Shown in pieces: positions 6,591-31,099 of a stretch of DNA of 39,904 bases. Every line of letters begins with the position of its first letter. The stretch's first letter is position 1. The notes under the pieces were generated by a model. The model saw nothing but the letters and a program-made list of their open reading frames with translations, made no database searches and was not told the DNA's origin. The stretch lies in NCBI GenBank assembly GCA_020722485.1, contig DYKS01000003.1, positions 1-39,904 of the forward strand. The letters are read 5' to 3'. This stretch comes from Candidatus Elulimicrobium sp. (GTDB lineage: Bacteria; Patescibacteriota; Minisyncoccia; Moranbacterales; UBA9337). A program made the position numbers and the translations under genes.

Positions 6591-7916
6591 TCATTTTCTT
6601 GATTTAACATAGTCCAAAATTATACAAGCAGTTTCTCTGCTGGTTCCCAGAATAAAATATTCTCCTTCTAAAAAATAATCCACAGAAAAATTATTTTCTC
6701 TATCCACGTTTAAATATCGAGAATTGCCTCCTTTATCGCATATTCCGCTTTTCATTGGAGAAACTGATGAAGAAAAATCTTTTCCTAAAAATAATGGTTG
6801 AACTTTTGCGGCAATACCAATTTCATCTTTGACTATTTCTTGAGAAAACGATTGAATATCTTCTACTATCACAGCTATTCCCATCCGAACCCCATAATCA
6901 TTATTGACAAAATAAAGTGAAAAATCCTCCCCAAAAGTTTTCAATGTTTCCGGAGAAAGGGTCAAGTTAAAAATCTGAGAAAAAATCGGAAAAGCGATTG
7001 GATTAATATCATAATCTACCACTTCAAATTCAAAAATTTTTCCTTTTTCTTCATACGATTGGATTTCCTCGCTAATTTTTTTACAATCTTCCAAAATACT
7101 TTGCGCGGTAGCGTCTTCAGTATTCACTTTTAAATAATTTATCCTTTGAGAAGAATATTTGCCCTCTGTTTCTATTGGAACAACAATTTTCTCTTCTGTA
7201 AATTCTTTTGGTTTATCAGCGCCTTTGTTAAAAATCCCTCTTTTCCAGAAAAAATATCCTCCTGCCAATAAAAAAGAAATAACTAAAATAACAGATGAAA
7301 TCAATAAAAATTTTTTCTTTGAATGAGCCGGTTTGCTTTCTGATGAAATTTCCAAAGAAGGATTATGTTTATCAGGAATGTTTTTCGCGGAAAAGAATTT
7401 ATTGAAATCATCAGACGGAATTTCAGCTTTTTTTTCATTTAAAGAAAATTTATTCTCTTCTTTGGGCGAAAAAGAACTTGCCAAAGATGATTTTCTTTTG
7501 GAAATAACTTCGGAAGGAAAAGGGCGATGAAAAGAAGAATTGGGAGCGGATTTCTTTGATTCGGAAAAAGCTGAAGTATTAAAATTCTTATTTTTATTTA
7601 AACCAGAAAAAATTTCCTTGACTGACTTATTTTCCGGTAGAGAAGAAACGGTATGAGAAACATTATGAGAAACCGAGGCAGGGGAGGATTCTTTTTCAGA
7701 AATAGAAATTTCCTTCGATTCTTTTTTATCTTCTTCTGTAAAATCAGACAAATCTTTTTTTATATTTAGAATTTCTTTTGAGCTTCTATCCAAATCGTCT
7801 TTCATCGTATGAAAAACCGCTTGAATAGGTTGCTCCGATTCGGAAGAATATTTTTCGGAATTATTTTTATTTGTCGTCAAATTAGAAAAAAAGGGAGAAT
7901 TTGTTTTATTGCTCAT
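6591..7916 (-). CDS. Hypothetical single-pass membrane protein: S/K/E/N-rich disordered N-terminus, one TM helix, ~215-aa C-terminal globular domain
   Basis: Long uninterrupted ORF. TM segment FLLISSVILVISFLLAGGYFFW. No family signature recognised. Confidence 0.6.
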   Translation of the reverse strand: MSNKTNSPFFSNLTTNKNNSEKYSSESEQPIQAVFHTMKDDLDRSSKEILNIKKDLSDFTEEDKKESKEISISEKESSPASVSHNVSHTVSSLPENKSVKEIFSGLNKNKNFNTSAFSESKKSAPNSSFHRPFPSEVISKRKSSLASSFSPKEENKFSLNEKKAEIPSDDFNKFFSAKNIPDKHNPSLEISSESKPAHSKKKFLLISSVILVISFLLAGGYFFWKRGIFNKGADKPKEFTEEKIVVPIETEGKYSSQRINYLKVNTEDATAQSILEDCKKISEEIQSYEEKGKIFEFEVVDYDINPIAFPIFSQIFNLTLSPETLKTFGEDFSLYFVNNDYGVRMGIAVIVEDIQSFSQEIVKDEIGIAAKVQPLFLGKDFSSSVSPMKSGICDKGGNSRYLNVDRENNFSVDYFLEGEYFILGTSRETACIILDYVKSRK

Positions 7917-10586: not shown

Positions 10587-11717
10587 ATGGCTCTGGAAAC
10601 CAACCACCAAATTGAAGAATTTATCAAAAAATCTAAAAATATTCTCCTTTTGCTTCCGTTTTCTCCGTCGGGAGACGCACTAGGAGCGGCTTGGGCACTT
10701 CATTTTTCTCTGAAAGAAAAAGGAATAGAAACAGAAATTTTTTTTGACGATCCTTATAATCACGTTTCCTTGTTTAATTTCCTGCCTCATCCTAGTTTGA
10801 CAACTAATATCTCGGAAAAAAGAGAATTTGTTCTTATTTTTGATACTTCTCGCAATAAAATAAGCGACACTCACATAGAAAAAGAAGAAGATAAACTAAA
10901 AATTTTCATCACACCGGAGAAAGGATTTATTGAACCGCGCGATTTTTCTTTTATTCCAGCCCGTTTTAAATATGACTTGCTTATAATATTAGGATCTCCG
11001 GATAAAGAATCATTAGGAACTATTTATGAAAAACATTCGGATATTTTCTTTGAAATTCCAATTATTAACATAGACAATCATAATGAAAACGAAAATTTTG
11101 GACAAATTAATCTAGTAGACGTAACCGCTTCTTCAGTTTCAGAAATCGTCTTTAAATTCCTAGAAAAATCTGAATTTTCTTTAAGTGAAAAAACCGCCAA
11201 CTGCTTACTTTTTGGCATTATTAACGCTACGAATAGTTTCAAAGAAAAAAATACCACTCCTCAATCATTGGAAATATCGGCGCGCCTTATCGGTTTGGGA
11301 GCCGACCAGCAAAATATAATTCGCCATTTATACAAAACTCAACCTTTGAATATTTTGAAACTTTGGGGACGTGTTATGTCTCAATTAAAATGGAATGAAG
11401 AATTGAAAATAATTTGGGTAACAGTTTCTTTGGATGATTTTATTCAAAGCCGCAGTCAACCAAAAGATTTACCTTTAATTCTAGAAAAAATCAAAGAAAA
11501 TTATTCCGCTGGAAAAATTTTTCTGGCTCTTTATTCAGAAAACCAAAACTTTACTCGGGGTATTGTTCAATTTTCCCGGGAAGAAGATTTGTTGAAATTC
11601 ACGCGCTTGTTTAACGGTAAAAGAAGAAATTCCCAGTGTGAATTCGTTTTGGAAAATAAATCATTATTGGAAGCGGAAAAAGAAACACTGGAAAAAATAA
11701 AAAGTCTTTTTGTTTAG
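10587..11717 (+). CDS. DHH/DHHA1-like phosphoesterase homologue with degenerate catalytic motifs
   Basis: NrnA-like layout: ..SGDALGAA.. (canonical DGDxxGS), ..IFDTS.., ..NIDNHNENENFG.. (canonical DHH is DNH here). No GGGH motif seen in the C-terminal half. Confidence 0.6.
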   Translation: MALETNHQIEEFIKKSKNILLLLPFSPSGDALGAAWALHFSLKEKGIETEIFFDDPYNHVSLFNFLPHPSLTTNISEKREFVLIFDTSRNKISDTHIEKEEDKLKIFITPEKGFIEPRDFSFIPARFKYDLLIILGSPDKESLGTIYEKHSDIFFEIPIINIDNHNENENFGQINLVDVTASSVSEIVFKFLEKSEFSLSEKTANCLLFGIINATNSFKEKNTTPQSLEISARLIGLGADQQNIIRHLYKTQPLNILKLWGRVMSQLKWNEELKIIWVTVSLDDFIQSRSQPKDLPLILEKIKENYSAGKIFLALYSENQNFTRGIVQFSREEDLLKFTRLFNGKRRNSQCEFVLENKSLLEAEKETLEKIKSLFV

Positions 11718-11794: not shown

Positions 11795-14700
11795 ATGAAC
11801 ACTCAATCAAATCCAACAGATTTCCGCGATCCTTTGAATAAAAAAGAAATTATTCAAAAAACTTTGACAAAATTCAGCAAAGAAACCGAAGAAGAACAAG
11901 CTTCTTTACTGGCCAAAAAACACCAACTGCCTTATTTAGATCTTAATTTATTTTTTATCCAAGCCAACGAAGTCAAATTATTAGCGGAGAAAGAAGCGTT
12001 AAAATATCACGCCGCCATTTTTCAAAAAATTGGCAAAGAAATTCGCGTCGCCATTACCCAGCCACAAAGCAAAGAAACATTTGATTTTTTTAACGCTTTT
12101 GCTCAAAAAAATGGGTGGCAAGCGAGATTTTTTGTGGTTTCTAATTCTTCTCTATCAAAAGTATTGAAAAAATATTCTTCCGAAGACTTGTTAGATAATT
12201 TAAATCTGATCAAAGTTTCTCTTCATAAAGAAAACTTGGAAAAATTTGAAAAAGATTTTAAAAATCTTTTAGATCTCAAAAACCGTATTTTGGAAATTCC
12301 CATCACTCAAGTAATTGACACTATTTTGGCCGGCGCGATAAAAATGAATGCCAGCGACATCCATTTGGAACCAGAAGAAAAAGAATTGCGTATTCGCTAT
12401 CGTTTAGACGGAATTCTTCATTCTATCGGCGCTTTCCCTTTAAAAGCGCACCGCTCCTTAATCACTCGTATAAAAATAATGGGAGGAATGAAAATTAACA
12501 TTCACGAAACCGCGCAAGATGGAAGTTTTTCTTTTGATTTAGAACAACATAAAATTGACGCTCGAGTCAGTATTATTCCCGGAAATTTCGGGGAAAGCGC
12601 GGTTATTCGTTTACTGGATCAGTCGCAAACACTTTTACAAATAGAAGAATTAGGATTGCGAGGATTGGCTTATGAAGAAATAAAAAGACAAATTAACCGC
12701 CCTAATGGAATGATTTTAACAACGGGACCGACCGGATCGGGTAAAACCACTAGTCTTTATGCTTTTATTAATAGAATAAATACACCCAATGTCAAAATTA
12801 TTACCATTGAAGATCCGATTGAATACCAAATTAAAGGTATTTCGCAAACGCAAGTTTCCCCAGAAAACGGTTATACTTTCGCCAATGGACTGCGAGCTAT
12901 TGTTCGCCAAGATCCGGATGTCATTCTGATTAGTGAAATCCGCGATGATGAAACAGCTGATATCGCCATCAATTCCGCCCTTACTGGTCATTTGGTTTTA
13001 AGCACGCTTCACACCAAAGGAGCCAGCGCTTCTATTTCCCGTTTGCTTGAATTAAGGATAAGACCATCTTTAATTTCTTCATCGCTGAATACTATTATTT
13101 CCCAAAGATTAGTGCGTCGCCTTTGTCTTCATTGCAGAGAAGAATATGTCCCCGCGCCAGAAACAGTAGATTGGATCAAAAAAATTATTTCTTTAATTTC
13201 TCCAAAGTCTAAAGTAGAAATTCCTAAAAAAATAGAGAAACTCTACCGAGCCAAAGGTTGCGCTTATTGTAATGGAACGGGATACAAAGGACGCATCGGA
13301 ATTTTTGAAGTGCTTAGCATCAATGAAAAAATCAGCGATTTAATCCGAAATATGGAAAGCGAGAAAAAAATCAGCGAAGCGGCAATAGAAGAAGGAATGA
13401 TAACTATGGTTCAAGACGGAATTTTAAAAGCAATAGAAGGCAATACTTCTATTGAAGAAATATGGCGCGTAACGGATCAGGCTGATTTTTTAGAAAAAAT
13501 TTATGAAAAATTAATGGAGCAATCTCTGGCGCGCTCAATTCAAATTAAAGAAAAGGACTTAAAAACAGTTTCCGAACATATAATTTCTTTTGAAAAATTA
13601 AAAACTTTTTTGGAAAATCTTAAAACAGAAGATTTACTACGTTATGTTTTAGCCGGAGCGCTTTTGATTAATGCTAGTGATATTCATTTAGAACCAACCG
13701 AGAAAAATGTTTTGATCAGAATGCGTTTAGATGGCGTTTTACAAAATATAGCTTCTTTTCCACTAACTGAATATCCTTCTCTTTTAGGAAATATTAAAAC
13801 CCTAAGTGGATTATTGTATGAACAACAAGCCGGTATTCAAGACAGCCGTTTTTCCGTTGATTTAGAGAAACCCTTTGGAAAACTTACGATGCTAAAAAAC
13901 GACATTCGTGTTTCTATTATTTTAGGCGGCTATGGAGAAACAGCTGTATTGCGAATCCTTAATCAAAATTTTTCTAAAATAGGGATTGAATCTTTAGGAA
14001 TTCGTCAAGAAAATTTAAAAAAAATTAAAAAAGAAATCCATAAACCTTATGGTTTATTTCTAAACACCGGACCTACTGGATCAGGAAAAACCACTACTCT
14101 TTATGAAATTTTAAAAATTCTTAACAAACCAGAAATTAAAATCATTACCATTGAAGATCCAATTGAATATCGTTTAGATGGAATTATTCAAACCCAAATA
14201 AATGAAGAAAACGGATATACTTTTTCTAGCGCTCTTCGCTCTATTTTGCGCCAAAATCCCAATGTTATAATGTTAGGAGAAATCCGAGACGAAGAAACCG
14301 CTCAAATGGCAATCCAGGCAGCCCTTACTGGTCATTTGGTTTTAAGCACGCTTCACACTAATGACGCCGCTGGAGCAATTTCTAGATTTATTAATTTAGG
14401 CGTCCGTTCCGATGATTTAACAACATCTGTTGGCAGTTTTATGGCGCAAAGATTAGTGAGAAAATTATGCGACTGCAAAATTAAAACTGAACTTTCGGTG
14501 TCAGAAAAAGAAAAAATTAAAAAAGCGCTTTCCACTATTTCTCCTCAAGCAAAAATAAAAATTCCTCAAATTAAATACGCTTATCGCCCTAATGGCTGTC
14601 CCAAATGCAACGGGATTGGCTACAAAGGACGCGTGGCTATCAGTGAGATTTTAACAGTTAATGATAAAATAAAGGAAATGATTAATAATGGAGATCCCGT

Positions 14701-14821
14701 TTATAAAATCAAGAAACAGGCCCAAGAAGATGGAATGATTACTATGTTTCAAGATGGAGTTTTGAAAGTTCTAGAAGGAGAAACCACTTTAGAAGAAGTG
14801 GAAAAAGTAACCGGAGAATAA
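11795..14821 (+). CDS. Tandem-duplicated GspE/PilB-type secretion/pilus-assembly ATPase: T2SSE_N-like N-domain plus two complete ATPase modules
   Basis: Module 1: GPTGSGKTTS, IITIEDPIEYQI, DPDVILISEIRD, TGHLVLSTLHT, CLHC...CAYCNGTGYKGR. Module 2: GPTGSGKTTT, IITIEDPIEYRL, NPNVIMLGEIRD, TGHLVLSTLHT, CDC...CPKCNGIGYKGR. One uninterrupted 1008-codon ORF. Confidence 0.85.
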   Translation: MNTQSNPTDFRDPLNKKEIIQKTLTKFSKETEEEQASLLAKKHQLPYLDLNLFFIQANEVKLLAEKEALKYHAAIFQKIGKEIRVAITQPQSKETFDFFNAFAQKNGWQARFFVVSNSSLSKVLKKYSSEDLLDNLNLIKVSLHKENLEKFEKDFKNLLDLKNRILEIPITQVIDTILAGAIKMNASDIHLEPEEKELRIRYRLDGILHSIGAFPLKAHRSLITRIKIMGGMKINIHETAQDGSFSFDLEQHKIDARVSIIPGNFGESAVIRLLDQSQTLLQIEELGLRGLAYEEIKRQINRPNGMILTTGPTGSGKTTSLYAFINRINTPNVKIITIEDPIEYQIKGISQTQVSPENGYTFANGLRAIVRQDPDVILISEIRDDETADIAINSALTGHLVLSTLHTKGASASISRLLELRIRPSLISSSLNTIISQRLVRRLCLHCREEYVPAPETVDWIKKIISLISPKSKVEIPKKIEKLYRAKGCAYCNGTGYKGRIGIFEVLSINEKISDLIRNMESEKKISEAAIEEGMITMVQDGILKAIEGNTSIEEIWRVTDQADFLEKIYEKLMEQSLARSIQIKEKDLKTVSEHIISFEKLKTFLENLKTEDLLRYVLAGALLINASDIHLEPTEKNVLIRMRLDGVLQNIASFPLTEYPSLLGNIKTLSGLLYEQQAGIQDSRFSVDLEKPFGKLTMLKNDIRVSIILGGYGETAVLRILNQNFSKIGIESLGIRQENLKKIKKEIHKPYGLFLNTGPTGSGKTTTLYEILKILNKPEIKIITIEDPIEYRLDGIIQTQINEENGYTFSSALRSILRQNPNVIMLGEIRDEETAQMAIQAALTGHLVLSTLHTNDAAGAISRFINLGVRSDDLTTSVGSFMAQRLVRKLCDCKIKTELSVSEKEKIKKALSTISPQAKIKIPQIKYAYRPNGCPKCNGIGYKGRVAISEILTVNDKIKEMINNGDPVYKIKKQAQEDGMITMFQDGVLKVLEGETTLEEVEKVTGE

Positions 14822-15096: not shown

Positions 15097-16086
15097 ATGA
15101 CTATAACTAACTCCAAAGAAAAACAAGAAGATATTAAATTAGATTTCACTTTACGTCCTCAAAGTTTTTCTGAATATATCGGTCAAGAAAAAACTAAAAA
15201 AAATCTCCGCATCCTTATTGAAGCCGCCAAAAAAAGAAAAGAAGCGATTGATCATATTTTGCTTTATGGGCCGGCCGGATTGGGAAAAACCACTCTTTCC
15301 CATATTATCGCCAAAGAAATGGGTGTAAATATCAAAGCTACTTCCGGTCCAGCGATTGAAAAAGTGGGCGATTTAGGATCTATTCTAACCAATTTGGGAA
15401 ATGGAGACATCCTTTTTATTGACGAAATTCACCGCTTAAACAAAACTGTTGAAGAAGTGCTTTATCCCGCGATGGAGGACTATAAACTAGACATTATTGT
15501 TGGCAAAGGACCTTCCGCTCGCACTCTTCAATTAGATTTGCCTAAATTTACTTTAATTGGAGCTACTACTAAATTAGGATCCCTTTCTAATCCTTTAAGA
15601 AACCGATTTGGCATTATCAGCCGATTAGATTTTTACACCCCCCAAGAAATCGGAGAAATTATCCGTCGTTCCAGCCGTATTCTAGGCATAGATATTAATG
15701 AAGAAAGTGTCCGTTCTATAGCTAATTGTAGCCGTCAAACCCCGCGTGTCGCCAATCGCATCCTAAAAAGAGTGCGTGATTTTGCTCAAATTCAAAACAG
15801 TAATCTTATTAATGAAGAAATTACCAACGTGGCCTTACAAATGTTAGAAATAGACAAATTCGGACTAGAACCCACTGATCGCCACATAATAAGAACTATC
15901 TTAGACAAATTTGAGGGCGGACCAGTTGGTATTCAAACTATTGCCGCCGCCACCGCCGAAGAAATTCAAACTATTGAAGATGTTTACGAACCGTATTTAA
16001 TTCAATTAGGTTTTCTGGCGCGTACTCCGCGCGGTCGTGTTGTCACTAAAAGCGGACGAGAACATATTAGCGCAAAAGAAAAATAA
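15097..16086 (+). CDS. ruvB: Holliday junction branch-migration helicase RuvB
   Basis: [13 protein letters not shown]...[13 protein letters not shown] (Walker A), [10 protein letters not shown] (Walker B), conserved C-terminal winged-helix region. Confidence 0.95.
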
Positions 16087-17184: not shown

Positions 17185-17661
17185 TGGGTCACGTTTAATT
17201 CTCGTTGTTTGAAATTGCGTGTTCATAGAGTATTAAGTATAAGGTGTCTTTTTTGCTCTTGGAATCGCAAAAAAAGCGAATGTATAAGTTCACTAAATAT
17301 TGCGCTCTATGAGAAAATAGGGCGATGTCATTTTTTTATCATATTCATTGCAAATATACGGGTATTAAAGGTATAAAGTTCAATAGAACGCTATAAGACG
17401 AATTCATTGATTTCCATAAATCCGATCTGCTTAATCCGGATATTTTTAACCGCAAAATCATTGATTATCTGATCTGGTATAATACCAAATGAACGCATTA
17501 TGCTTTTGAAAATCTGCTATCTCCATTACAATTCATAATGTCGTTGCAAACTAATAACTTTAATTTGTCTCAAGAGCGCAATCAAGAGTGGACTCATACA
17601 AACCCTGTCATTGTTTATAAATTTTGTTAAAATATTACTAATAAGTAACTTTTTTAAAAAA

Positions 17662-19602
17662 ATGCGGGTGAAACCAATAGGCGTGAAAAAAATTTCATTG
17701 CTTACTTTTTTATTTGGAATGACATTCTTCGCTTTTTTTGTAATTACCGGATTTTCTTTAGCGGAAGAAACCGACTTAATTGCAACCGAAATAATGTACG
17801 ACGCGGAAGGAATCGATAATGACAAAGAATGGATTGAGTTTAAAAATAAATCCCAAAATTCTTTGAAAATTTTTAATTGGAAACTGATAGAATCCAGCAA
17901 ACCAGAAACGCAACATAAAATTTCTCTTTATCAGGGCAATTCCGTTATAGAACCGGAAGAATATTTCATTATTGCAGAAAACGCGAAAGAATTTATTAAA
18001 AAAATTCCGGAAGATTATTCGGCGACGGTTTTGGATAGCAGTTTTTCGTTGAGTAACACGAAAGAAGAAATAATTCTCTTAGATGCTGACGGAAACCTAT
18101 TAGCAACCACTTCTTATGAAAATTCTGCGGGAGGGAAAGGCAACGGCTTTACTTTAGAATGGGAAGACGGGGTTTGGCGAGAAAGTTTTATCAAAGGCGG
18201 AACACCGGGAAAGAAAAATTCACAAAAATCTAACCAGCCGGAATATTCCGATCAAATAAAATTAAATGAAATTCTTCCTAACCCCAAAGACAATGAAAAA
18301 ACAGACGAATTTATTGAGTTGTATAATTTTTCTTCTGATGAAATTAATTTAGAAAATTGGATATTAAAAGACGCATCTAAGTCGGGAAAGTTTGTTTTTC
18401 CGAAAGATTATTTTATAAAACCAAATGGCTATCTTGTTGTTTATAAAAACTTGTTTAAATTTGCTATGAATAATTCCGGCGGAGAAGAAGTTTTTCTTTT
18501 AAATCCGAATGAAAAAATTGTTTCTTCTGTTTCTTATGAAAAATCTTTTGAGGGGATTTCCTATAATTTTGATTCAGAAAATAATAATTGGCGCTGGAGT
18601 AAGTTCCTAACGCCGGGAGAAAAAAACAAATTGGATAAAATTCCTAAAATTGAAATAAAAAAAGACAAGAAAATATACAAAAATTTTTACGCCACCTTTG
18701 AGATAAAAATTCACTCCAAAAACAAGAAGGAAAACAGAGTTACATGGGACTTTGGCGATGGTAAAAAAAGTTACAAAAGAAAAACTCGTCATAAATATTC
18801 AAAAACCGGAACCTATCTAGTCAAACTTAAGATTTTTACTGGCAGTGAAGAAATAGTAAAACAATTTTCCGTCAAAGTGAGAAAATACCCGCATCCAAAA
18901 GTAAAATTTATTCGTTTTTCTCCCAATCCTGCTGGAAAAGACAGTGAGCAAGAATGGATTGAGATCAAAAATTATTCATCCAAAAAAATCAATTTAAAAG
19001 ATTGGAGCATTAAAACCGGCGTTTCTTCTCAAAAAGCGGTTAATCATTCAATTAATGATGATTTTTTCCTGAAAGCGGGAGAAAGAGGCGTTTTAACACG
19101 CGACTTTTCCAAATTTTCTTTAAACAATAAAAAGGGAGAAATAAAATTGCTTTACCCGGACGGAAAAACGGCAGATAAAATCACCTATAAAAAAGAAAAC
19201 GAAATCAAAGATGACGAAATTTATGAAAAGAAAAACGGAGGCAAGTGGCAATGGCAAGAAAAATCCATTCTCGCTATTTCCAAACCCAAACAAGAAACAA
19301 TAATAAAAAATAGTCCGCTAAAACCAGAAAAATTTATTGAAGTTCCAAAGGAGTATATCGGTCAGAAATCTTATCCAAAAAAGACGAATTCTCCTATTTT
19401 AAATTATGGATTATTCGCTTATACCGAGAAAAATCCTCGCTACTCAACCGAATTTGTTTTGGGAATGGAAACGAAAAAAATCTCCGCTGAAAATTTTTTA
19501 GCAAAAACAAAAACCGCTAAACAAGAACATTACTTGGTGTCTTTCGCTAAACAATTAAATAAGAAACTAAACAATTTATTGATTAAAATATCCAATCATT
19601 GA
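17662..19602 (+). CDS. Secreted/anchored protein with three lamin-tail-domain (LTD) repeats and one PKD-like domain
   Basis: Signal/TM segment after MRVKPIGVKK. LTD signatures: ..ATEIMYDAEG.DNDKEWIEFKN.., ..NEILPNPKDNEKTDEFIELYNFS..NLENWILKD.., ..FSPNPAGKDSEQEWIEIKNYS..LKDWSIK... PKD-like VTWDFGDG..........YSKTGTYLVKLKI. Start set at ATG 17662 rather than TTG 17611. Confidence 0.75.
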   Translation: MRVKPIGVKKISLLTFLFGMTFFAFFVITGFSLAEETDLIATEIMYDAEGIDNDKEWIEFKNKSQNSLKIFNWKLIESSKPETQHKISLYQGNSVIEPEEYFIIAENAKEFIKKIPEDYSATVLDSSFSLSNTKEEIILLDADGNLLATTSYENSAGGKGNGFTLEWEDGVWRESFIKGGTPGKKNSQKSNQPEYSDQIKLNEILPNPKDNEKTDEFIELYNFSSDEINLENWILKDASKSGKFVFPKDYFIKPNGYLVVYKNLFKFAMNNSGGEEVFLLNPNEKIVSSVSYEKSFEGISYNFDSENNNWRWSKFLTPGEKNKLDKIPKIEIKKDKKIYKNFYATFEIKIHSKNKKENRVTWDFGDGKKSYKRKTRHKYSKTGTYLVKLKIFTGSEEIVKQFSVKVRKYPHPKVKFIRFSPNPAGKDSEQEWIEIKNYSSKKINLKDWSIKTGVSSQKAVNHSINDDFFLKAGERGVLTRDFSKFSLNNKKGEIKLLYPDGKTADKITYKKENEIKDDEIYEKKNGGKWQWQEKSILAISKPKQETIIKNSPLKPEKFIEVPKEYIGQKSYPKKTNSPILNYGLFAYTEKNPRYSTEFVLGMETKKISAENFLAKTKTAKQEHYLVSFAKQLNKKLNNLLIKISNH

Positions 19603-21032: not shown

Positions 21033-21701
21033 ATGAAAACTAGTTATTTTGTGGATTATTTTGTTTCTCAAGGAGTTCCTTTAGAAACCGTGTTTCTGAT
21101 TTTAATGCTTCCCGTAATTGCCACTATGATCGCTTTCTTTCGGCAAGTTTTGGGAATAAAGGCTTTCGGCATTTACACACCATCGATAATAACTTTCGCT
21201 TTTTTAGCAATGGATTTCGGCTCAGAAAATAGCGGCATTAAATACGGAGTGATTATTTTTCTAAGTGTCATTTTTGCCGGAATGATTACTCGCTACATTC
21301 TCAAAAAATTACGTCTGCTTTATTTGCCTCGCGTGGCTATCACCTTAAGCATCGTGTCTTTCGCCATTTTAACTGTTTTGGTATTAGGTGGTTCTTTACA
21401 ACGTACCGGTCTAGCTTCGGTTTCTGTTTTTCCAATTTTAATTATGATTACTATTGTAGAAAAATTCGTCGCTGCCCAAATTGAAAAAGGAAACAAAACC
21501 GCCATTATTTTGGCCGCGGAAACTTTGTTTATTTCCTTGATGGGATATTATTTGACTAATTGGAAAACGCTCTCTTCTTTCATTTTGACTTATCCTTGGA
21601 TAATACTCTTTACTTTTCCTTTAAATTTTTTCTTAGGCAAATGGACTGGCTTGCGTCTTTCTGAATATTGGCGTTTTAAAGAAATTTTGAAAAAAATGTA
21701 A
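21033..21701 (+). CDS. Stand-alone 7TM module of the type usually fused to an inactive transglutaminase (7TM_transglut-like)
   Basis: 222 aa with about 7 hydrophobic helices. ..FFRQVLGIKAFGIYTPSII.., ..LPRVAITL.., ..FPILIMITIVEKF.. and C-terminal ..WTGLRLSEYWRF.. match my memory of this family. No transglutaminase domain is present. Confidence 0.6.
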   Translation: MKTSYFVDYFVSQGVPLETVFLILMLPVIATMIAFFRQVLGIKAFGIYTPSIITFAFLAMDFGSENSGIKYGVIIFLSVIFAGMITRYILKKLRLLYLPRVAITLSIVSFAILTVLVLGGSLQRTGLASVSVFPILIMITIVEKFVAAQIEKGNKTAIILAAETLFISLMGYYLTNWKTLSSFILTYPWIILFTFPLNFFLGKWTGLRLSEYWRFKEILKKM

Positions 21702-21724
21702 TTATTTTTCGGCGAAAAAACATT

Positions 21725-23140
21725 ATGTTGAATTTTTTTAAAAACAGCCGCAAAATTCTAGGAATGAATTCTCGCAATTTAAATTATATTCGCCTTTATA
21801 ATCATAAAAAAGCCATTTGTATTGCGGATGATAAATTGTTAAGTAAAAGAATTTTAAAAAAAAATGACTTACCAGTTCCCGCGTTGATTGAAAAAATCAC
21901 CTCTCACCAAGAACTGGAAAATTTTGATTGGACAAAATTACCTAACAGCTTTGCGCTTAAACCAAACCGCGGATTAGGAGGAGAAGGAATTTTAGTTGTT
22001 TATGGAAAGAAAAAAAATGGAAATGAAGCCTGGATTAAAGCGGACGGATCGATAGTTACTTTGGATGATCTAAAAAATCATATCAGTAATATTTTGGATG
22101 GAAATTTTTCTCTCTCCAGCGTGCCGGATAAAGCTTTTTTTGAAGAAAGAGTGCGACTTCTAAAATTATTCAAACCTTACACTTTTAAAGGCATTCCGGA
22201 TGTCCGTATAATTGTTTACAATAGCGTTCCGGTTATGGCAATGTTGCGCCTTCCCACTAAAGAATCGGGCGGAAAAGCTAATCTTCAACAGGGAGCAGTG
22301 GGTGTAGGCATTGATATGGCTAGTGGAGTTACTACTTCCGCCGTTCAAGGAAAAAAATCCCACTTAATTGAATATGCGCCGGGAACCAGATTGCCGCTTT
22401 CCGGAATCAAGATTCCTTATTGGAAAGAACTTTTGGAATTAGCGATTAAAGCGCAAAGGGTGTCCGGTTTGGGTTTTTTAGGAGCGGATATCGCCATTGA
22501 TCAAGAAAAGGGTCCGGTTTTTTTGGAATTAAACGCTCGCCCCGGCCTTTCCATTCAAATCGCCAATCTGGCCGGACTTCAAGAAAGACTGCAAAGAGTG
22601 TCGGGACTGAAAATAAAAACAATTAAGAGAGGTATTAATGTGGGAATGGATTTGTTTGGAGGAGAAATTGAGGAAGAAATTGAAGAAATTTCCGGCAAGA
22701 GAATTATCGGTTCGGTGGAAAAAATAAAGCTGATTGGCAAAAACGGAAAAGAAATTGAAGTGGAAGCCAGAGTAGACACGGGAGCGAGTATTTCCGCTAT
22801 TGATAAAAAATTAGCAATAGAGCTTGGATTTGATGAGGCGGTAAAATACTGGGAAGATTTTCATTTGGATCATACTTTAAATACTCAAGAAATTGAAGAA
22901 TTAAGCAAAAATAAAGTCTGGAAAGAATTAGAAAAACATCCAGATGTGATTGGTGTAGCAAAAATCTTTTCTTCACATGGAGCCTCTTATCGGATTAAAA
23001 TCAAAGTTATGTTAACAATAGATTCGCTTCCAATTATTTCCAAACTTTCGATTGCAGATAGATCGGGTTTGAATTATCCGGTTTTAATTGGCAGACGCGA
23101 TCTTAAAAAATTTTTAATTGATGTAAATAAAACAATATGA
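21725..23140 (+). CDS. Fusion protein: alpha-L-glutamate-ligase-related ATP-grasp (ATPgrasp_ST / TIGR02291-like) plus C-terminal retropepsin-like 'ATP-dependent zinc protease' domain (Zn_protease/RimB-like)
   Basis: N-terminus ILGMNSRNLNYIRLYN.K.....DDKLLSKRIL.KNDLPVP and ..FLGADIAID.EKGPVFLELNARPGL.. indicate ATP-grasp. From about aa 325, IGSVEKIKL......IEVEARVDTGASISAID ... DRSGLNYPVLIGRRDLKKFLIDV indicates the retropepsin-like fold. Confidence 0.7.
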   Translation: MLNFFKNSRKILGMNSRNLNYIRLYNHKKAICIADDKLLSKRILKKNDLPVPALIEKITSHQELENFDWTKLPNSFALKPNRGLGGEGILVVYGKKKNGNEAWIKADGSIVTLDDLKNHISNILDGNFSLSSVPDKAFFEERVRLLKLFKPYTFKGIPDVRIIVYNSVPVMAMLRLPTKESGGKANLQQGAVGVGIDMASGVTTSAVQGKKSHLIEYAPGTRLPLSGIKIPYWKELLELAIKAQRVSGLGFLGADIAIDQEKGPVFLELNARPGLSIQIANLAGLQERLQRVSGLKIKTIKRGINVGMDLFGGEIEEEIEEISGKRIIGSVEKIKLIGKNGKEIEVEARVDTGASISAIDKKLAIELGFDEAVKYWEDFHLDHTLNTQEIEELSKNKVWKELEKHPDVIGVAKIFSSHGASYRIKIKVMLTIDSLPIISKLSIADRSGLNYPVLIGRRDLKKFLIDVNKTI

Positions 23141-24090
23141 AAAAGGTAATGATTCTTTTTGGCAAAAGCGATTGGAAAAAAGCTAAACCTTTCTCTAATA
23201 AAGATTATCAATATTCTTACGAATATTTTTACGATCTTTGTCAAAAAAACGGGATTCAAATGTATCGCGCTTCTTACGAGTGGTATGACTATCAAAAGCA
23301 TCTTTTTAAACACGCCTGGATTTTTAAAAGTAAAGGAGGAAAATGGAAAAGAGTTTCTAATATTAAGCCGGATTTGATTTACGATAAAACTAAAGCGCGT
23401 TTGGAAATATATTATAAAAAAGAATTAATAAGAAAAGCTTTTCCTTTTATAAATAATCTGATTTTTACTCAATTAATTGACGACAAACTAACAACAAGTT
23501 TGCTTTTTGAAAAATGGTGTAAAAAAAGTTGGGTAATAGAAAACAAAAACGATTTAAAAAAATTTTTGCCAAAAATAAAAACAGAAAAAGCGGTCTTAAA
23601 ACCTCTTCTTGAAAGTGGAGGAAAAGGGATACAAATAATGGATAAAGGAGACATCCTTAAAAAAGCTATTATTGATTGTCCTTATTTACTTCAGGAATTT
23701 ATTGATTCTTCTTATGGTGTGCCGGGCGTAAGCGACAAATCGCACGATTTGCGTTTAGTTTTTATTAATGATGAAATAATTTATTCCTACATAAGAGAGC
23801 CGAAAGAAGGCAGTTATTTAGCCAATTTATCCCAGGGAGGAAGTCTAAAGATTGTTCCAAAGAACAAGTTGCCAAAATCTCTTAATCCGATAATTAATAA
23901 AGCCAATAAGCTTTTCGCCACTTTTAATCCGCGAATTTATTCAATTGATTTTATGTTTGATAGAAAAAAACAACCTTGGATAGTGGAACTCAACTCTATG
24001 CCCGGATTATTTTTCACGCCGGCAGAAAAACCTTATATGTTGAAAATGTATGGAAAGTTATTGAATGTTTTTAAAAAATATATGCGATAA
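23137..24090 (+). CDS. ATP-grasp ligase (YheC/YheD- or RimK-related)
   Basis: ..KAVLKPLLESGGKGIQIM.., ..HDLRLVFINDEIIYSYIREPKEGSYLANLSQGGS.., ..SIDFMFD.KKQPWIVELNSMPGL... The ATG overlaps the upstream stop (ATGA at 23137-23140). Confidence 0.65.
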   Translation: MKKVMILFGKSDWKKAKPFSNKDYQYSYEYFYDLCQKNGIQMYRASYEWYDYQKHLFKHAWIFKSKGGKWKRVSNIKPDLIYDKTKARLEIYYKKELIRKAFPFINNLIFTQLIDDKLTTSLLFEKWCKKSWVIENKNDLKKFLPKIKTEKAVLKPLLESGGKGIQIMDKGDILKKAIIDCPYLLQEFIDSSYGVPGVSDKSHDLRLVFINDEIIYSYIREPKEGSYLANLSQGGSLKIVPKNKLPKSLNPIINKANKLFATFNPRIYSIDFMFDRKKQPWIVELNSMPGLFFTPAEKPYMLKMYGKLLNVFKKYMR

Positions 24091-24097
24091 TTTTTTT

Positions 24098-24958
24098 ATG
24101 CGTATCTGTATAATTACGGACAATAAAAATTCTTATTCCTCGAAAAAATTTTTCAAGGAAGCAACTGCCAAAAATATTAAGGTTGATTTTATATTATGGA
24201 AAAGTATTTTTTTGGACGAGAAAGGTGTTATTTTTGGCGGTGATATTCCCCTGAATGAATTTGACGGAGTAATTCTGCGCAGCTCCAAGAAATTATCGGT
24301 GCCTAATATAGTAATTGTGGAATATTGCAAAGCCAATAATATCCGTCTTTTGAATAAAGATTTTTATTTTCGTTATCAATCAACAAATAAGTTACGGCAG
24401 TATTTAATTTTTAAGACAAAAGAGATACCTTGTTTGGAAACTTTTTATGGAGAGAAAGTAAGCTATTCTTTTTTAAAAAGAAGGATTGGATTGCCGTTTG
24501 TTGCCAAATCCATAAATGGCAGTTTGGGTAAGCAAATTTTTAAAATAAAAAACAGACAAGAATTTAAGAATTTCATTCGACAGCAAAAAGTTAAAAAACA
24601 GTTGTATATATTTCAAAAATTTTATTCCGGCGCCACTGATTATCGTGTTTTCATTGTCGGTAAAAAAATTTTTGGTCCGGTCAAGAGAATCGCTCCACTC
24701 GGAAAGTGGAAAACAAACGAAGTTGGTTCCGCGCATAAACGCTGTGAAAAAGAAAAACGTGTGCTTAATTTAGCAAAAAAAATTGCCCAAAAAACCAAAA
24801 TAGAATTTGCCGGTTTAGATATTTTGATTGATGCTGAAGGTCAGCCACGGATTATTGAAATGAACACTATGGGTGTTTTTAGGGTTTTTGATACTGTTTA
24901 TCCGGAAATCGATATCGCCAAAAAAACTATTGAGCTTATGGTAAATACAATGAAATAA
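24098..24958 (+). CDS. RimK-family ATP-grasp ligase
   Basis: MRICIITD... pre-ATP-grasp domain, ..LPFVAKSINGSLGKQIFKIKN.., ..DYRVFIVGKKIFGPVKRIA..GKWKTN.., ..FAGLDILIDAEGQPRIIEMNT... Start set at ATG 24098, 7 nt after the upstream stop; the track start 24065 would overlap the previous gene. Confidence 0.7.
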   Translation: MRICIITDNKNSYSSKKFFKEATAKNIKVDFILWKSIFLDEKGVIFGGDIPLNEFDGVILRSSKKLSVPNIVIVEYCKANNIRLLNKDFYFRYQSTNKLRQYLIFKTKEIPCLETFYGEKVSYSFLKRRIGLPFVAKSINGSLGKQIFKIKNRQEFKNFIRQQKVKKQLYIFQKFYSGATDYRVFIVGKKIFGPVKRIAPLGKWKTNEVGSAHKRCEKEKRVLNLAKKIAQKTKIEFAGLDILIDAEGQPRIIEMNTMGVFRVFDTVYPEIDIAKKTIELMVNTMK

Positions 24959-27724: not shown

Positions 27725-28870
27725 TTATTTTTTAATTGGCATCACCATATACAAAAACCCTTCCATAATTTCATTCTCTTTATCGCCGGCATTTTTAAAA
27801 ATCAATGGAGAATGCGAGTTATTCACAAAAATAACTGCCTTGTGAGTGGATAAGGAATTTAATCCATCTAAAAAATAACGGGGATTTAAATAAATATCTT
27901 GATCATCTCCGGATAAAAATTCTGCTTTTAAACGCGTTTCATTTTCCCCTGATTCGTTAGAATAAGACTTTATTATAATTTCTTTTTTTTGTATATCTAT
28001 CTTTAAATTAACCTCCCCTGATTTATTGTCCGTAAAAACACTTGCCACCTTCACCGCTTTAATTATTTCATCTCTAAAAACAAAAATTTGGGTGCTAAAT
28101 TTATTGGGAATTATTTGTTTATAATCAGGATAATTACCATTTATTAAGCGCGACATTAATAAATTTCCATTTATTTCAAAAAATACCTGACCATCTTCAA
28201 AAGCAATTTTTATTTTTTCTGTTTCTAAATCAATTAATCTTACTAGTTCCATAAATGTTGCCGCTGGAATAATATGAGATGCTATTTTTTCCTCATTAGG
28301 TGATTCTTTTCTCTCTATAATAGGTATAACCCCTTCCGATAAACGAAAACTGTCTGTGGCGGCTAAAATAAGCTTATTTTCATTTTCAGAAATATTTATC
28401 CCTGTTAATTCTATTCTATTTTGAGCAGTAGCCACTGAAACCAAAATTTTTGAAATAATTTCTTTGGTTTTTAACGCGGGAATTTCTAGGAAAAATTCAG
28501 TTTTAATCTTAGGTATTATAGGAAAATCTTCATCATTTATTCCTTTTATTTTCACTTTATAATTTCCGGATATTATTTTTAAGTCATAACCTTCTGTTTC
28601 TATTTCAATATTAGTTGTTTCACTAGGTAAATTTGCCATAAATCCAGCTAATGTTTTGGCTGGAATTGCTATTTTTCCTGATTCCTCTATTTTTACCCTT
28701 AAAGTAGAAATAATTCCTATTTCTAAATTAGTGGCAGATAATTTCAAAACACCATTATCCGCTTCCATTAAAATATTATTTAAAATAGGAAGAGAATTTT
28801 GTTTTCCTGCTATTTTATCTGTATAGTCCACTGCTTTTTTAAGGTTTTTGTAAGTGCAAGATAATTTCAT
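27725..28870 (-). CDS. dnaN: DNA polymerase III beta sliding clamp
   Basis: 381 aa, three-domain clamp pattern (..LPILNNILMEA....L.L.ATNLEIGI.., ..ATDSFRLSE.., ..YLYMVMPIK), directly downstream of dnaA. Confidence 0.9.
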   Translation of the reverse strand: MKLSCTYKNLKKAVDYTDKIAGKQNSLPILNNILMEADNGVLKLSATNLEIGIISTLRVKIEESGKIAIPAKTLAGFMANLPSETTNIEIETEGYDLKIISGNYKVKIKGINDEDFPIIPKIKTEFFLEIPALKTKEIISKILVSVATAQNRIELTGINISENENKLILAATDSFRLSEGVIPIIERKESPNEEKIASHIIPAATFMELVRLIDLETEKIKIAFEDGQVFFEINGNLLMSRLINGNYPDYKQIIPNKFSTQIFVFRDEIIKAVKVASVFTDNKSGEVNLKIDIQKKEIIIKSYSNESGENETRLKAEFLSGDDQDIYLNPRYFLDGLNSLSTHKAVIFVNNSHSPLIFKNAGDKENEIMEGFLYMVMPIKK

Positions 28871-28930
28871 AAGAGTATTTATAATTACTTTTTAACATAA
28901 TTTATTATTTATTATTAAGAAATGTTTTTT

Positions 28931-29138
28931 TGTGGATAAATGGAAAAAACCTACTGCTTGACAAAAAATATGTATAAAAAAATGTTTATAACCTGCGTGA
29001 ATAATTATAGGATAAAAAAAGAATAAATTGTTAGTAAGAAATAAATTAAAATAAATTTTAGTTATCCACATAGTGGTTCAATATAGTATTCAACTGGTTA
29101 TCAACAGAAAATAGGGTATTATTAACAACTTATCCACA
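28931..29138. promoter_or_regulatory. oriC part, dnaA-dnaN spacer: DnaA boxes TGTGGATAA 28931-28939, TTATCCACA 29062-29070, TTATCAACA 29098-29106 (1 mismatch), TTATCCACA 29130-29138
   Basis: Read directly. The surrounding spacer is extremely AT-rich and could serve as an unwinding element. Confidence 0.7.
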
Positions 29139-29139
29139 G

Positions 29140-30534
29140 TTAAACATTTAATTTTTTATTTAATTGTTTAAATTCAGACTCAATTTCTTTTTTTTCATAG
29201 ATAGCGCTGCTTATTTTTTTGCAAGCATACATAACAGTTGTATGATCTCTTCCACCTAAAAAATCTCCAATTTCAGGAAAAGATAATTTTAAATGATAAC
29301 GAATTAAAAACATTGCCATTTGTCTACAAAAAGCCACTTTTTTCTTTCTATTTTTATTAAAAAGGTCTTTTTCTTGTATTTCATAAAAATCTGCTACGGT
29401 TTTAATTATTTTTTGGCGGGTTAAATTTAATGAATTGTTTTGCTGTAAAAGATCTAAAAGAATTTCTTTAATATCATTTAAACTTAATTCTCTTTGATTT
29501 AACTGGGAATAAGCGATTAATTTATTTAACGCGCCCTCTAATTCTCGTACGTTTTTATTAAAGTTTTCCGCTAGGAAACGCAAATGCTCTTTCTTTATAG
29601 AAAAATTTTTTTCTGTTGCTTTTTGTTTTAAAATAGCAACGCGCGTTTCCATGTCAGGATTACTTACATCCGCAATCATTCCCCCTTCAAAACGGGAACG
29701 GAGCCTTTCTTCTAATATACTTATTTCTTTAGGGGGACGATCGCTACTTAAAACTACTTGTTTGTTTATTTGATAAAGAGCGTTGAAAATATGAAAAAAT
29801 TCAGTTTGAGTTTTTTCCTTGCCAGAAATAAATTGAATATCATCTATGATTAATAAATCGGTTTTTTTATAATGTTCTTTAAATTTATCTATTGTCCCGT
29901 TTTTTATAGAGTCAATTAAATCAGTGGTAAATGCTTCTGATGAGATGTATTTTACTACTTTTTCCGGATTTTTACGCAAAACCTCATTTCCAATGGATTG
30001 GAGGAGATGAGTTTTTCCTAATCCTACGCCACCATAAATAAATAAAGGGTTGTAAACCATACCCGGTTTTTGAGAAACAGCATAACAAGCCGCTCTAGCT
30101 AATTCATTATTTTCTCCCACTATGAAATTTTCAAAAGTATAACGAGGATTAAGATTGTTTTTTGGGTTTAATAAAGTATTTCCGGAATAAGTGGCTTGAA
30201 AATGAACTGGCGCGGAGTTTGTTTTAAAATAAGAATTATTTTTTACGCCATCAATAGTTTTCGTCACAGAAGCAGATTTTTCCTTAATATTTCCATTTAT
30301 TACGCATTTTATTTCTTTAATATCGCTTTGAAAGTTACGCAAAGAATTAAGAATTATTTTATTAAATTTGTTTTCTAGCCATTCTTTAGCAAATCCATTG
30401 GGAACACCAATAACAACCGTTCCATTTTGATTGGAAATAATATGCGTGTCCTTAAACCAAGTGACAAATTGGGCGCTAGACAAAGAAAGTTCAGCTTCAG
30501 CTAAGACGGAATTCCAAAGAGATGTATTATCCAT
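29140..30534 (-). CDS. dnaA: Chromosomal replication initiator DnaA
   Basis: ..LNPRYTFENFIVGENN.LA.AA...V...PG..YNPLFIYGGVGLGKTHLL (Walker A), LLIIDDIQF (Walker B), C-terminal DNA-binding ..IGDFLGGRDHTTVMYACKKI... Start set at ATG 30534 (MDNTSLWNSV...). The longer track ORF would cover the DnaA box at 30564-30572. Confidence 0.95.
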   Translation of the reverse strand: MDNTSLWNSVLAEAELSLSSAQFVTWFKDTHIISNQNGTVVIGVPNGFAKEWLENKFNKIILNSLRNFQSDIKEIKCVINGNIKEKSASVTKTIDGVKNNSYFKTNSAPVHFQATYSGNTLLNPKNNLNPRYTFENFIVGENNELARAACYAVSQKPGMVYNPLFIYGGVGLGKTHLLQSIGNEVLRKNPEKVVKYISSEAFTTDLIDSIKNGTIDKFKEHYKKTDLLIIDDIQFISGKEKTQTEFFHIFNALYQINKQVVLSSDRPPKEISILEERLRSRFEGGMIADVSNPDMETRVAILKQKATEKNFSIKKEHLRFLAENFNKNVRELEGALNKLIAYSQLNQRELSLNDIKEILLDLLQQNNSLNLTRQKIIKTVADFYEIQEKDLFNKNRKKKVAFCRQMAMFLIRYHLKLSFPEIGDFLGGRDHTTVMYACKKISSAIYEKKEIESEFKQLNKKLNV

Positions 30535-30563
30535 AATAATTGATTTATTAAGACAATTTGATT

Positions 30564-30615
30564 GTGGATAAAGTATAGCACAAGATAAAAATAATACCAA
30601 AAAACCTGTGGATAA
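30564..30615. promoter_or_regulatory. oriC part, upstream of dnaA: DnaA boxes TGTGGATAA at 30564-30572 and 30607-30615
   Basis: Read directly. They are followed by about 240 nt of highly AT-rich spacer before the rpmH promoter. Confidence 0.65.
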
Positions 30616-30855
30616 GTATGTTAATAAATTGTAAATAACTTATATCTATTAGATTTTATCGCATTGTTTATGATTCTTGTAGGATAGAATTATTAATTAA
30701 TTTCTCTATTTGTTTATATTTCTAAATAATAATTTTTTTATACATTATTTCTTTATATTCTTTATAAACGGGAATTTAGTTTGTTTTTTATAATTCCAGT
30801 ATATTTAATTTTAATGAAGCGTTGTAATTATTTTTTGAAATTAAGATGCGTCGCA

Positions 30856-30884
30856 TTGACCTTATTCGCTTCTCCTGATAAACT
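30856..30884 (+). promoter_or_regulatory. Sigma70-like promoter candidate for rpmH: TTGACC, 17-nt spacer, TAAACT
   Basis: Read directly, about 57 nt upstream of ATG 30941. Confidence 0.45.
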
Positions 30885-30940
30885 GATTTATATGGTCTTG
30901 CGACTATTATTTTTTAAAAAACAATTTTTATAAAAATTTT

Positions 30941-31078
30941 ATGAAAAGAACATATCAACCCAAAAAAAATCGCAGAAAAAAGAGACACGGATTTTTAAAA
31001 AGAAGCAGTACCAGAGATGGAAAAAATGTTTTAACGCGCCGTCGTCGAAAAGGAAGAAAAAAACTAACAACTGTCTAG
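30941..31078 (+). CDS. rpmH: 50S ribosomal protein L34
   Basis: Not in the supplied track (45 aa). My translation is [45 protein letters not shown], the classic L34 sequence in the classic position divergent from dnaA. Confidence 0.9.
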
Positions 31079-31099
31079 AAAAAAGGGAAAAATAAAAAA

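Follow-up and report, generated by a model that had tools for sequence, protein, structure and literature searches.

How does a bacterial gene come to encode two complete filament-motor ATPases in one protein chain, and what kind of ring could such a chain build? The question is raised by a 39,904-nucleotide (nt) stretch of Candidatus Elulimicrobium sp. (contig DYKS01000003.1, called the window at its whole length), whose plus strand carries at 11795–14821 a two-module PilB/GspE-type ATPase gene, the product of which is referred to below as the tandem ATPase. Four things are established: its architecture, its conservation, its origin by duplication in situ, and the fact that both modules have kept their catalytic and interface residues. 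The best explanation as a whole, which we consider rather probable, is an internally duplicated pilus-type motor of the PilB/GspE clade, three chains of which would form a ring of six modules working on a PilC platform protein encoded elsewhere.

A reading made from the sequence alone had proposed an uninterrupted open reading frame (ORF) of this length, and the ORF listing of the window bears it out: a single frame opens with ATG and runs through 1008 codons with zero internal stops or frame changes. The 1008-residue (aa) product matches Pfam T2SSE (PF00437) twice, with 752.5 bits in total against a gathering score of 24.9. The chain begins with one N1 domain (residues ~12–130), followed by two units of tether, N2D and C-terminal domain (CTD), the first covering residues 131–562 and the second 563–1008. 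Aligned over 425 aa, the halves show 48% identity and 70% similarity (E 6e-138), in agreement with the sequence-only estimate of about half. Module 1 together with the N-terminus has the full length of a PilB, since positions 28–563 (of 564) of the NCBIfam PilB model align to residues 17–561. An AlphaFold2 (AF2) monomer model, built from an alignment of 119 family sequences (mean predicted local distance difference test score, pLDDT, 80.9), gives both modules the same secondary-structure pattern and folds N1 as an alpha/beta domain at pLDDT 72–89.

Two parts outside the ATPase cores help to define the duplicated unit and the chain. The linker between N1 and N2D is homologous to the tether between the modules (hhalign of residues 117–229 against 550–670, probability 99.5%), and in the profile–profile alignment residues ~117–140 align to 550–580, which means that the duplicated unit begins upstream of N2D. 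Within the inter-module tether, F565, L566, Y570, L573 and M574 are invariant across the family alignment, and AF2 places helices at 563–577, 586–595 and 599–607. As for N1, Pfam MshEN matches residues 43–130 with 22.7 bits, just below its cutoff of 23.1. The motif for cyclic di-GMP (c-di-GMP) binding by MshEN, which we take to be the 24-residue pattern RLGxxLLxxGLLxxxxLxxxLxxQ in the N-terminal domain, matches N1 in 0/119 family sequences, also when the pattern is loosened. On both grounds, N1 does not count as an MshE-type c-di-GMP-binding domain.

A fused gene of this kind could be an artefact of assembly, frameshift or gene calling that unites two adjacent paralogous genes, and the sequence-only reading had itself raised the concern of a chimeric join. 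What speaks for an artefact is a 38-nt exact repeat between the modules and a disrupted frame in 2/75 related loci. The repeat encodes ALTGHLVLSTLHT in both copies, which lie in register 1344 nt apart, and 12/13 of its codons are identical against 52/85 across the whole CTD core; it may be a micro gene-conversion tract or a product of codon bias. It cannot explain the fusion because it is too short and too distant from the junction. The two modules are poor material for a false join, their DNA being only ~71% identical over a 343-nt catalytic core and unalignable outside it, and the window itself is free of any stop or frame change.

The distribution of the fusion bears on the same point. A protein search covering 5.8 billion proteins, with clusters counted at 90% identity, returned >118 distinct clusters of ~1005–1010 aa at 56–61% identity and 96–99% query coverage, drawn from independent NCBI, JGI, ENA and Logan assemblies, with Moranbacteria, Parcubacteria and Patescibacteria as named carriers. 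When 1.84 billion representatives at 50% identity were searched exhaustively with HMMER, ~14 two-module clusters (41–51% identity, collinear over residues 11–1008) stood out among 15,491 PilB-like representatives; below them the scores drop to ordinary proteins of ~550 aa. A junction query of 201 residues (module 1 end, tether, module 2 start) run against one-genome-per-species GTDB contigs matched 268 loci, and the best 80 all cover at least residues 1–189. Among these GTDB species genomes, 73/75 complete ORFs over the junction are intact two-module genes, with a median length of 1008 aa, and at least 76 species representatives carry the fusion. A junction peptide with invariant residues, recovered at this scale by independent assemblers, effectively refutes the artefact explanation, the likelihood of which is practically nil.

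Some observations accompany these searches. The window protein is an outlier of its family, its nearest relative among the 5.8 billion proteins being 61% identical. The two disrupted copies differ in kind: L042 (4556–7710) switches frame within module 2, and L036 (1147–4053) aligns in one frame with a shortened ORF. They may be pseudogenes or sequencing errors in metagenome-assembled genomes (MAGs). Many MAG records with a Patescibacteria-type locus are titled 'uncultured Bdellovibrionales' or 'Pseudobdellovibrionaceae' (L011, L013–L015, L029–L032 and others), titles that are probably submitter taxonomy errors.

Both modules are equipped as motors. Walker A (GPTGSGKT) starts at residues 311 in module 1 and 759 in module 2, the Asp box (EDPIEY) at 339 and 787 (spans E339–E343 and E787–E791), the (S/G)EIRD Walker B motif at 380 and 828 with the catalytic residues E381 and E829, and the His box (TGHLVLSTLHT) at 397 and 845 (spans 397–408 and 845–856). 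All four boxes had been assigned to both modules by the sequence-only reading, and all are present at those places. The same holds for the cysteines it described. Module 1 carries CLHC at 444 and CAYC at 489 (C444/C447/C489/C492, of the form CxxC...CxxC), and module 2 carries CDC at 892 and CPKC at 935 (C892/C894/C935/C938, CxC...CxxC); all eight are invariant in the 119 sequences.

Residues of PilB(Gm) named by McCallum 2017 (PMC5424180) were mapped on both modules across the 119 family members, and the numbering offset is validated by all 12 named residues meeting the expected amino acid. In PilB-Gm numbering, the arginine fingers R271 and R286, T327, Asp-box E357, catalytic E395, pore-loop D398/E400, T411 and His-box H413/H420 are invariant (119/119) in both modules, as is the Walker A Lys. 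The clade-specific inter-chain R455 corresponds to R441 and R889, both 119/119. Beyond the close family, each module of 13/13 distant two-module representatives still has its P-loop, Asp box, Walker B motif and His box. A degenerate module 2 P-loop in these distant representatives was considered and rejected, GPTS(A/S)GKT being a canonical GxxxxGK[ST]. Judged by these residues, each protein holds two complete PilB-type motor units, both of them apparently active. One peculiarity of the window protein is a Ser in front of the module 1 catalytic Glu (SEIRD), at a position where the family has a near-invariant Gly.

The modules are similar in equipment and differ in detail, and one of them might be a regulatory or structural pseudo-subunit, comparable to the non-catalytic alpha subunit of F1-ATPase, so that only three sites per ring would turn over ATP. 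One difference concerns R257 of PilB, an arginine that makes a bridge with the Asp-box Glu at open interfaces with bound ATP (PMC5424180). Its equivalent in module 1 (position 244, nt 12524–12526) is His in 98, Gln in 13 and Ser in 8 sequences and Arg in 0/119, the window copy having Ser244; the equivalent in module 2 (R685) is Arg in 119/119. Module 2 for its part has the CxC spacing noted above, an insertion of ~9 residues in N2D (PF..KLTML) that occurs neither in module 1 nor in canonical PilB, and a slightly faster rate of evolution (mean pairwise identity 0.735 against 0.781 for module 1). These features favour a pseudo-subunit. Set against them, the core catalytic residues and both arginine fingers are invariant in both modules of the 119 sequences and hold in the distant representatives, and the R257 position is not decisive: P0130 has His there in both modules, and Arg is kept in both by more distant two-module lineages and in most single-module relatives. 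The loss in module 1 is a real asymmetry and, given these two facts, probably a mild one. Of the alignment columns conserved at ≥90%, 115 have the same residue in both modules and 24 differ between them; departures from the canonical state number 5 against 4 between the modules, with no preference for either. A pseudo-subunit is highly improbable.

With regard to family, the features that define the PilT/VirB11-like superfamily (residue features taken from PMC5424180) are all found, namely the Pfam T2SSE score, the motifs, the catalytic Glu and two arginine fingers in both modules. The tetracysteine motif in both CTDs, the inter-chain Arg and the closest structures point further to the PilB/GspE clade. 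In sequence, PilB, PilF and GspE lead the solved structures with E-values of 1e-83 to 1e-108, and PilT follows at ~1e-30; in structure, Foldseek target TM-scores are 0.90–0.93 to the best PilB/PilF chains against at most 0.80 for PilT chains. One module superposes on the Thermus PilF and Geobacter PilB cores with a root-mean-square deviation of 2–3 Å (Foldseek, a single-chain comparison). No solved chain in the PDB spans more than one module (Foldseek query TM-score at most 0.36).

The narrower NCBIfam names do not apply. On the PilB model TIGR02538 (cutoff 675.65 bits) module 1 with N1 reaches 488.0 bits and module 2 reaches 403.9; the corresponding pairs are 484.5 and 417.9 on GspE TIGR02533 (630.25), 249.2 and 231.1 on ComGA NF041000 (300), and 196.3 and 181.4 on PilT/PilU TIGR01420 (319.1), and the tandem ATPase moreover has the zinc cysteines and an N1, which members of the PilT/PilU family lack. 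The whole protein passes the PilB cutoff with a score of 879 because its two modules add up. On these sequence features, the tandem ATPase is a motor predicted to work like PilB that should not be classed as a PilB, GspE or ComGA equivalog.

Compared with solved PilB proteins (Geobacter metallireducens/sulfurreducens 5TSG/5TSH/5ZFR/6OLJ; Thermus PilF 5IT5/5OIU), the tandem ATPase has the same N1–linker–N2D–CTD order, shares the motifs, the atypical Walker B with catalytic Glu, the two N2D fingers, the pore-loop D/E, the inter-chain Arg and the tetracysteine motif, and is 41–44% identical per module. It differs in that each chain contains two modules (three in one relative) with a single N1 for the two, and in that its gene is not beside pilC, pilM or pilins. 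GspE (Vibrio EpsE/GspE 1P9R, 4KSR, 4PHT) belongs to the same clade, with the same motifs and zinc site (E ~1e-83 to 1e-99); the tandem ATPase departs from it in architecture and in the lack of nearby gspL, gspF and pseudopilin genes. A classical type II secretion system (T2SS) is also unlikely because Patescibacteria are reported to be without the outer-membrane secretin PilQ and a Gram-negative-type envelope (PMC6744442). A tandem PilB/GspE was not described in any text found by a full-text literature search, which left out many subscription journals, and the sequence-only reading knew of no characterised tandem PilB. The tandem architecture is a new variant of a known motor family; the public sequences that have it are filed under unspecific labels, e.g. 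'GspE/PulE family protein' or 'PilB'.

The origin of the second module can be traced at the locus itself. Across the close family, module 1 sequences are at least 0.615 identical to one another and module 2 sequences at least 0.562, whereas identity between the types never exceeds 0.539, so the duplication is older than the close family. In a neighbour-joining tree of representatives, module 1 stands beside single-module PilBs, and module 2 forms a divergent group of its own elsewhere in the tree. Nearest among the single-module relatives are P0141, P0136 and P0166 (554–565 aa, 50–58% identical to module 1, with which they cluster); they retain the canonical QDGR arginine and occupy the same slot, in the order TsaE(-) / DHH / ATPase / RuvB / bPH_2. 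This shared slot shows that the two-module gene arose where it stands, by internal duplication of an orphan PilB-like gene, and single-module DHH-linked ATPases of this type are probably the ancestral form. The genomic context of the next-best single-module matches, P0138 and P0145, was also considered and set aside as uninformative, the organisms being unrelated.

Later exchange between modules has left traces as well. The two modules of P0131 (L084:3226–6213) are 74% identical and those of P0130 (L085:10001–12985) 55%, against 35–51% in other representatives, and in both proteins the two modules are each other's nearest neighbours in the tree. An independent duplication was rejected for the pair, both genes lying in the main family's syntenic slot; the pattern suggests homogenisation by intragenic gene conversion (concerted evolution). 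One relative, P0002, has three modules in 1460 aa (L001:10001–14383, one contig only), with the same DHH gene directly upstream and RuvB, bPH_2 and LTD genes farther upstream. Its middle module is chimeric: N2D is of type 2 (67% to module 3 against 33% to module 1), and the zinc/C-terminal region is of type 1 (62% against 42%). Such a chimera is the product expected of unequal crossing-over in the conserved ATPase core. An assembly loop was rejected as its source, the repeats being 67% identical in DNA, the longest exact repeat 21 nt, and the contig stretch containing zero Ns.

The coexistence of one-, two- and three-module orthologues at one locus bears directly on the ring, since six modules per ring is the number that all three can supply (6x1 = 3x2 = 2x3). 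An ancestral single-module gene has duplicated the N1–N2 tether, N2D and CTD in tandem, leaving one N1 and two modules, both predicted to be competent. In the proposed mechanism, three chains would close one six-module ring, equivalent to the homohexamer of the single-module orthologues but with half its number of N1 domains, three for six. The two module types would follow each other in turn round the ring, with every module 1 opposite a module 2. The sequence-only reading had expected an enforced two-fold asymmetry from such a trimer; on this point it does not hold, as the chains would be arranged with three-fold symmetry and each module would face one of the other type. Each of the six N2D/CTD clefts would bind and hydrolyse ATP by means of Walker A, the Asp-box Glu, the catalytic Glu, the His box and the two N2D fingers. 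Through the pore loops of its two module types, the ring would act on a PilC-type platform protein, the gene for which would lie elsewhere in the genome, and in this way build a type IV or competence pilus. For the Candidate Phyla Radiation (CPR), Moranbacteria bins included, a wide occurrence of type IV pilus and competence genes has been reported (PMC6744442, PMC9530719).

A rival geometry would have six chains in place of three, with the six copies of module 1 in one hexameric ring and those of module 2 in another stacked on it, the arrangement of KaiC or type II AAA+ proteins. KaiC, p97/NSF/ClpB and engineered, covalently linked ClpX are analogues in that homologous ATPase modules lie in one polypeptide and neighbours are fixed; they belong to another ATPase superfamily or branch, and the natural examples, the tandem P-loop ATPases KaiC, p97, NSF and ClpB, typically place their two domains in separate stacked rings. 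Neither the PDB nor the literature searched yielded such a tandem example from the PilT/VirB11 family. The tether, at ~44 residues, is long and of partly low confidence in AF2, which would suit stacking. On the other hand, module number interchanges at one locus, most simply with six modules per ring, and the triple form would need three stacked rings. In a stacked pair, only one ring could contact the membrane platform. The pore-loop D/E and inter-chain Arg are kept in both modules, though a stacked ring would keep them too. Stacked rings are improbable; for the single ring of three chains, the stoichiometry is what we infer from the module series.

Genomic context has to be weighed next to this explanation. 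An unbiased neighbour census of 81 loci (the window and 80 related loci, ±10 kb, 1.34 Mb) shows a DHH-family gene directly upstream on the same strand in 70/81 loci (median gap 142 bp), also at single-module loci. The window DHH protein scores 31.9 bits on Pfam DHH, and its profile finds NrnA, Rv2837c and TM1595 in the PDB (E 1e-18 to 1e-20), which are related oligo- or dinucleotide phosphodiesterases. RuvB lies downstream in 63/81 loci and at single-module loci, a bPH_2 protein downstream in 57, TsaE upstream on the opposite strand in 52, a lamin-tail domain (LTD)/PKD protein downstream in 33, YebC downstream in 31, PolA upstream in 31 and RuvC downstream in 21; Fpg also recurs. The window copy of the DHH gene has 'NIDNH' where the orthologue consensus reads 'NIDHH', with Asn for the first catalytic His.

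Several of these results weigh against a pilus motor with a three-chain ring. The genes pilC, pilM, pilin, pilD and pilT are all absent within ±10 kb in the 81 loci, which contain neither a prepilin-type N-terminus nor an extra T2SSE ATPase and thus stand outside any pilus or T2SS neighbourhood; within the window, the sequence-only reading had rightly seen no pilus gene next to the ATPase, the ORFs reading as housekeeping. CPR pilus genes are reported to co-localise (PMC6744442), which sits badly with an orphan ATPase locus, and what is conserved next to it is the gene for the NrnA-like DHH protein, together with genes of DNA repair or housekeeping. Single modules fall under the PilB, GspE and ComGA equivalog cutoffs. 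Module 1 is without the R257 equivalent and module 2 has its CxC and N2D insertion, so the two site types may be non-equivalent. As regards stoichiometry, the AF2 monomer has a predicted template modelling score (pTM) of 0.47, a low inter-domain confidence at which domain placement is unreliable.

The same orphan position invites a reading in which the DHH-linked PilB-like ATPase, with one to three modules, is a paralogous orthogroup rather than a classical pilus motor. It would partner the NrnA-like phosphoesterase in another process, e.g. DNA or oligonucleotide uptake and salvage or second-messenger-controlled secretion, while a separate, operon-encoded PilB would serve the pilus. The constancy of the DHH gene and its relationship to nucleotide phosphodiesterases fit this role, as do the recurrent PolA, Fpg, RuvB, RuvC and LTD-domain neighbours, the sub-cutoff module scores, and the view that CPR bacteria import DNA for nucleotides (PMC9530719). 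Housekeeping gene order, however, is often conserved without a functional link, and the pore loops, inter-chain Arg, zinc cysteines and N1 are all retained. We know of no established non-filament function in the PilB/GspE clade, which also counts against such a role. It is unlikely on balance. A bolder form of the idea would make the TsaE/DHH/PilB-like/RuvB locus an unrecognised, Patescibacteria-wide two-gene system outside pilus assembly, e.g. in nucleic-acid import or degradation, with module number as an adaptive retuning of ring symmetry (C6→C3→C2 chains); this is decidedly doubtful. The pilus-type motor, with a platform protein encoded elsewhere, is still the more probable reading.

Coordinates of the tandem ATPase gene, its parts and its immediate neighbours in the window
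Feature	Position	Strand	Remarks
Whole two-module PilB/GspE-type ATPase gene	11795..14821	+	1008 aa; stop codon 14819-14821
N1 domain, residues ~12-130	11828..12184	+	T2SSE_N/MshEN-like; single copy per chain
N1-N2 flexible linker, residues ~131-164	12185..12286	+	AF2 pLDDT <50 at 130-162
Module 1 N2D, residues 165-283	12287..12643	+	Arg fingers R257 and R272 (window numbering)
Module 1 CTD, residues 284-562	12644..13480	+	Walker A 12725-12748; Zn motif 13124-13270
38-nt exact repeat, His box of module 1	12977..13014	+	identical to 14321..14358
Inter-module tether, residues 563-606	13481..13612	+	helical, ~44 residues; homologous to N1-N2 linker
Module 2 N2D, residues 607-731	13613..13987	+	Arg fingers R705, R720; R685 at nt 13847-13849
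Module 2 CTD, residues 732-1008	13988..14818	+	Walker A 14069-14092; cysteines 14468-14608
38-nt exact repeat, His box of module 2	14321..14358	+	identical to 12977..13014
DHH gene, upstream partner (NrnA-like, DHH/DHHA1-family, 376 aa)	10587..11717	+	78 bp upstream of ATPase gene
RuvB, downstream neighbour	15097..16086	+	Pfam RuvB_N/AAA_lid_4/RuvB_C

The remainder of the window is chromosomal in character, with housekeeping genes for PNPase, RuvB, YebC, RuvC, PBP1A, DnaN, DnaA and YidC (Pfam on six ORFs). tRNA and Rfam scans of the window gave zero matches, and promoter and terminator scans around the ATPase gene gave no more matches than in shuffled sequence. The LTD/PKD neighbour of the census, which follows RuvB and bPH_2, lies at 17611–19602 (+); it combines three LTD domains with one PKD domain and apparently has a signal-peptide-like or transmembrane start. 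At 21033–24958 (+), three genes for ATP-grasp/RimK-like ligases come after that of a 7TM_transglut membrane protein, an order kept in the related loci L002 and L086. A minus-strand gene at 6591–7916 encodes a Ser/Lys-rich protein of 441 aa with one predicted membrane segment and zero Pfam matches. At 27725–31100, dnaN and dnaA lie on the minus strand, and an AT-rich intergenic region of ~500 bp ahead of yidC is a probable replication origin; the cumulative GC skew has its minimum near 16–17 kb, much earlier than this region. At one single-module locus (L089:4605–5819), the gene after RuvB bears a T4SS_pilin domain (PF18895).

The current model for motors of the PilB/PilT family is a rotary cycle of C2 symmetry that passes round six identical subunits, and GspE hexamers had to be forced through fusion to Hcp1. 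Testing the C2 model needs rings with positions that can be changed independently, which is hard in homohexamers. If the single ring holds, the tandem family would supply natural, covalently linked rings in which a mutation in one of the two modules hits alternate positions and the members of each opposite pair are of different type. With the three-module relative, two chains would give a true two-fold chain symmetry and pairs of like modules across the ring. Single-, double- and triple-module orthologues at one locus form a ready comparative series, and they indicate that a conserved ring motor can alter its chain number through internal duplication, unequal crossing-over and gene conversion. 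The chemistry of the tandem ATPase is conventional, its biological role is one that we infer, and its usefulness lies chiefly with specialists in type IV filament motors. For the organisms themselves, the locus flags an orphan, DHH-linked PilB lineage in the ultra-small Patescibacteria, for whose host-dependent life surface filaments are believed to be of central importance.

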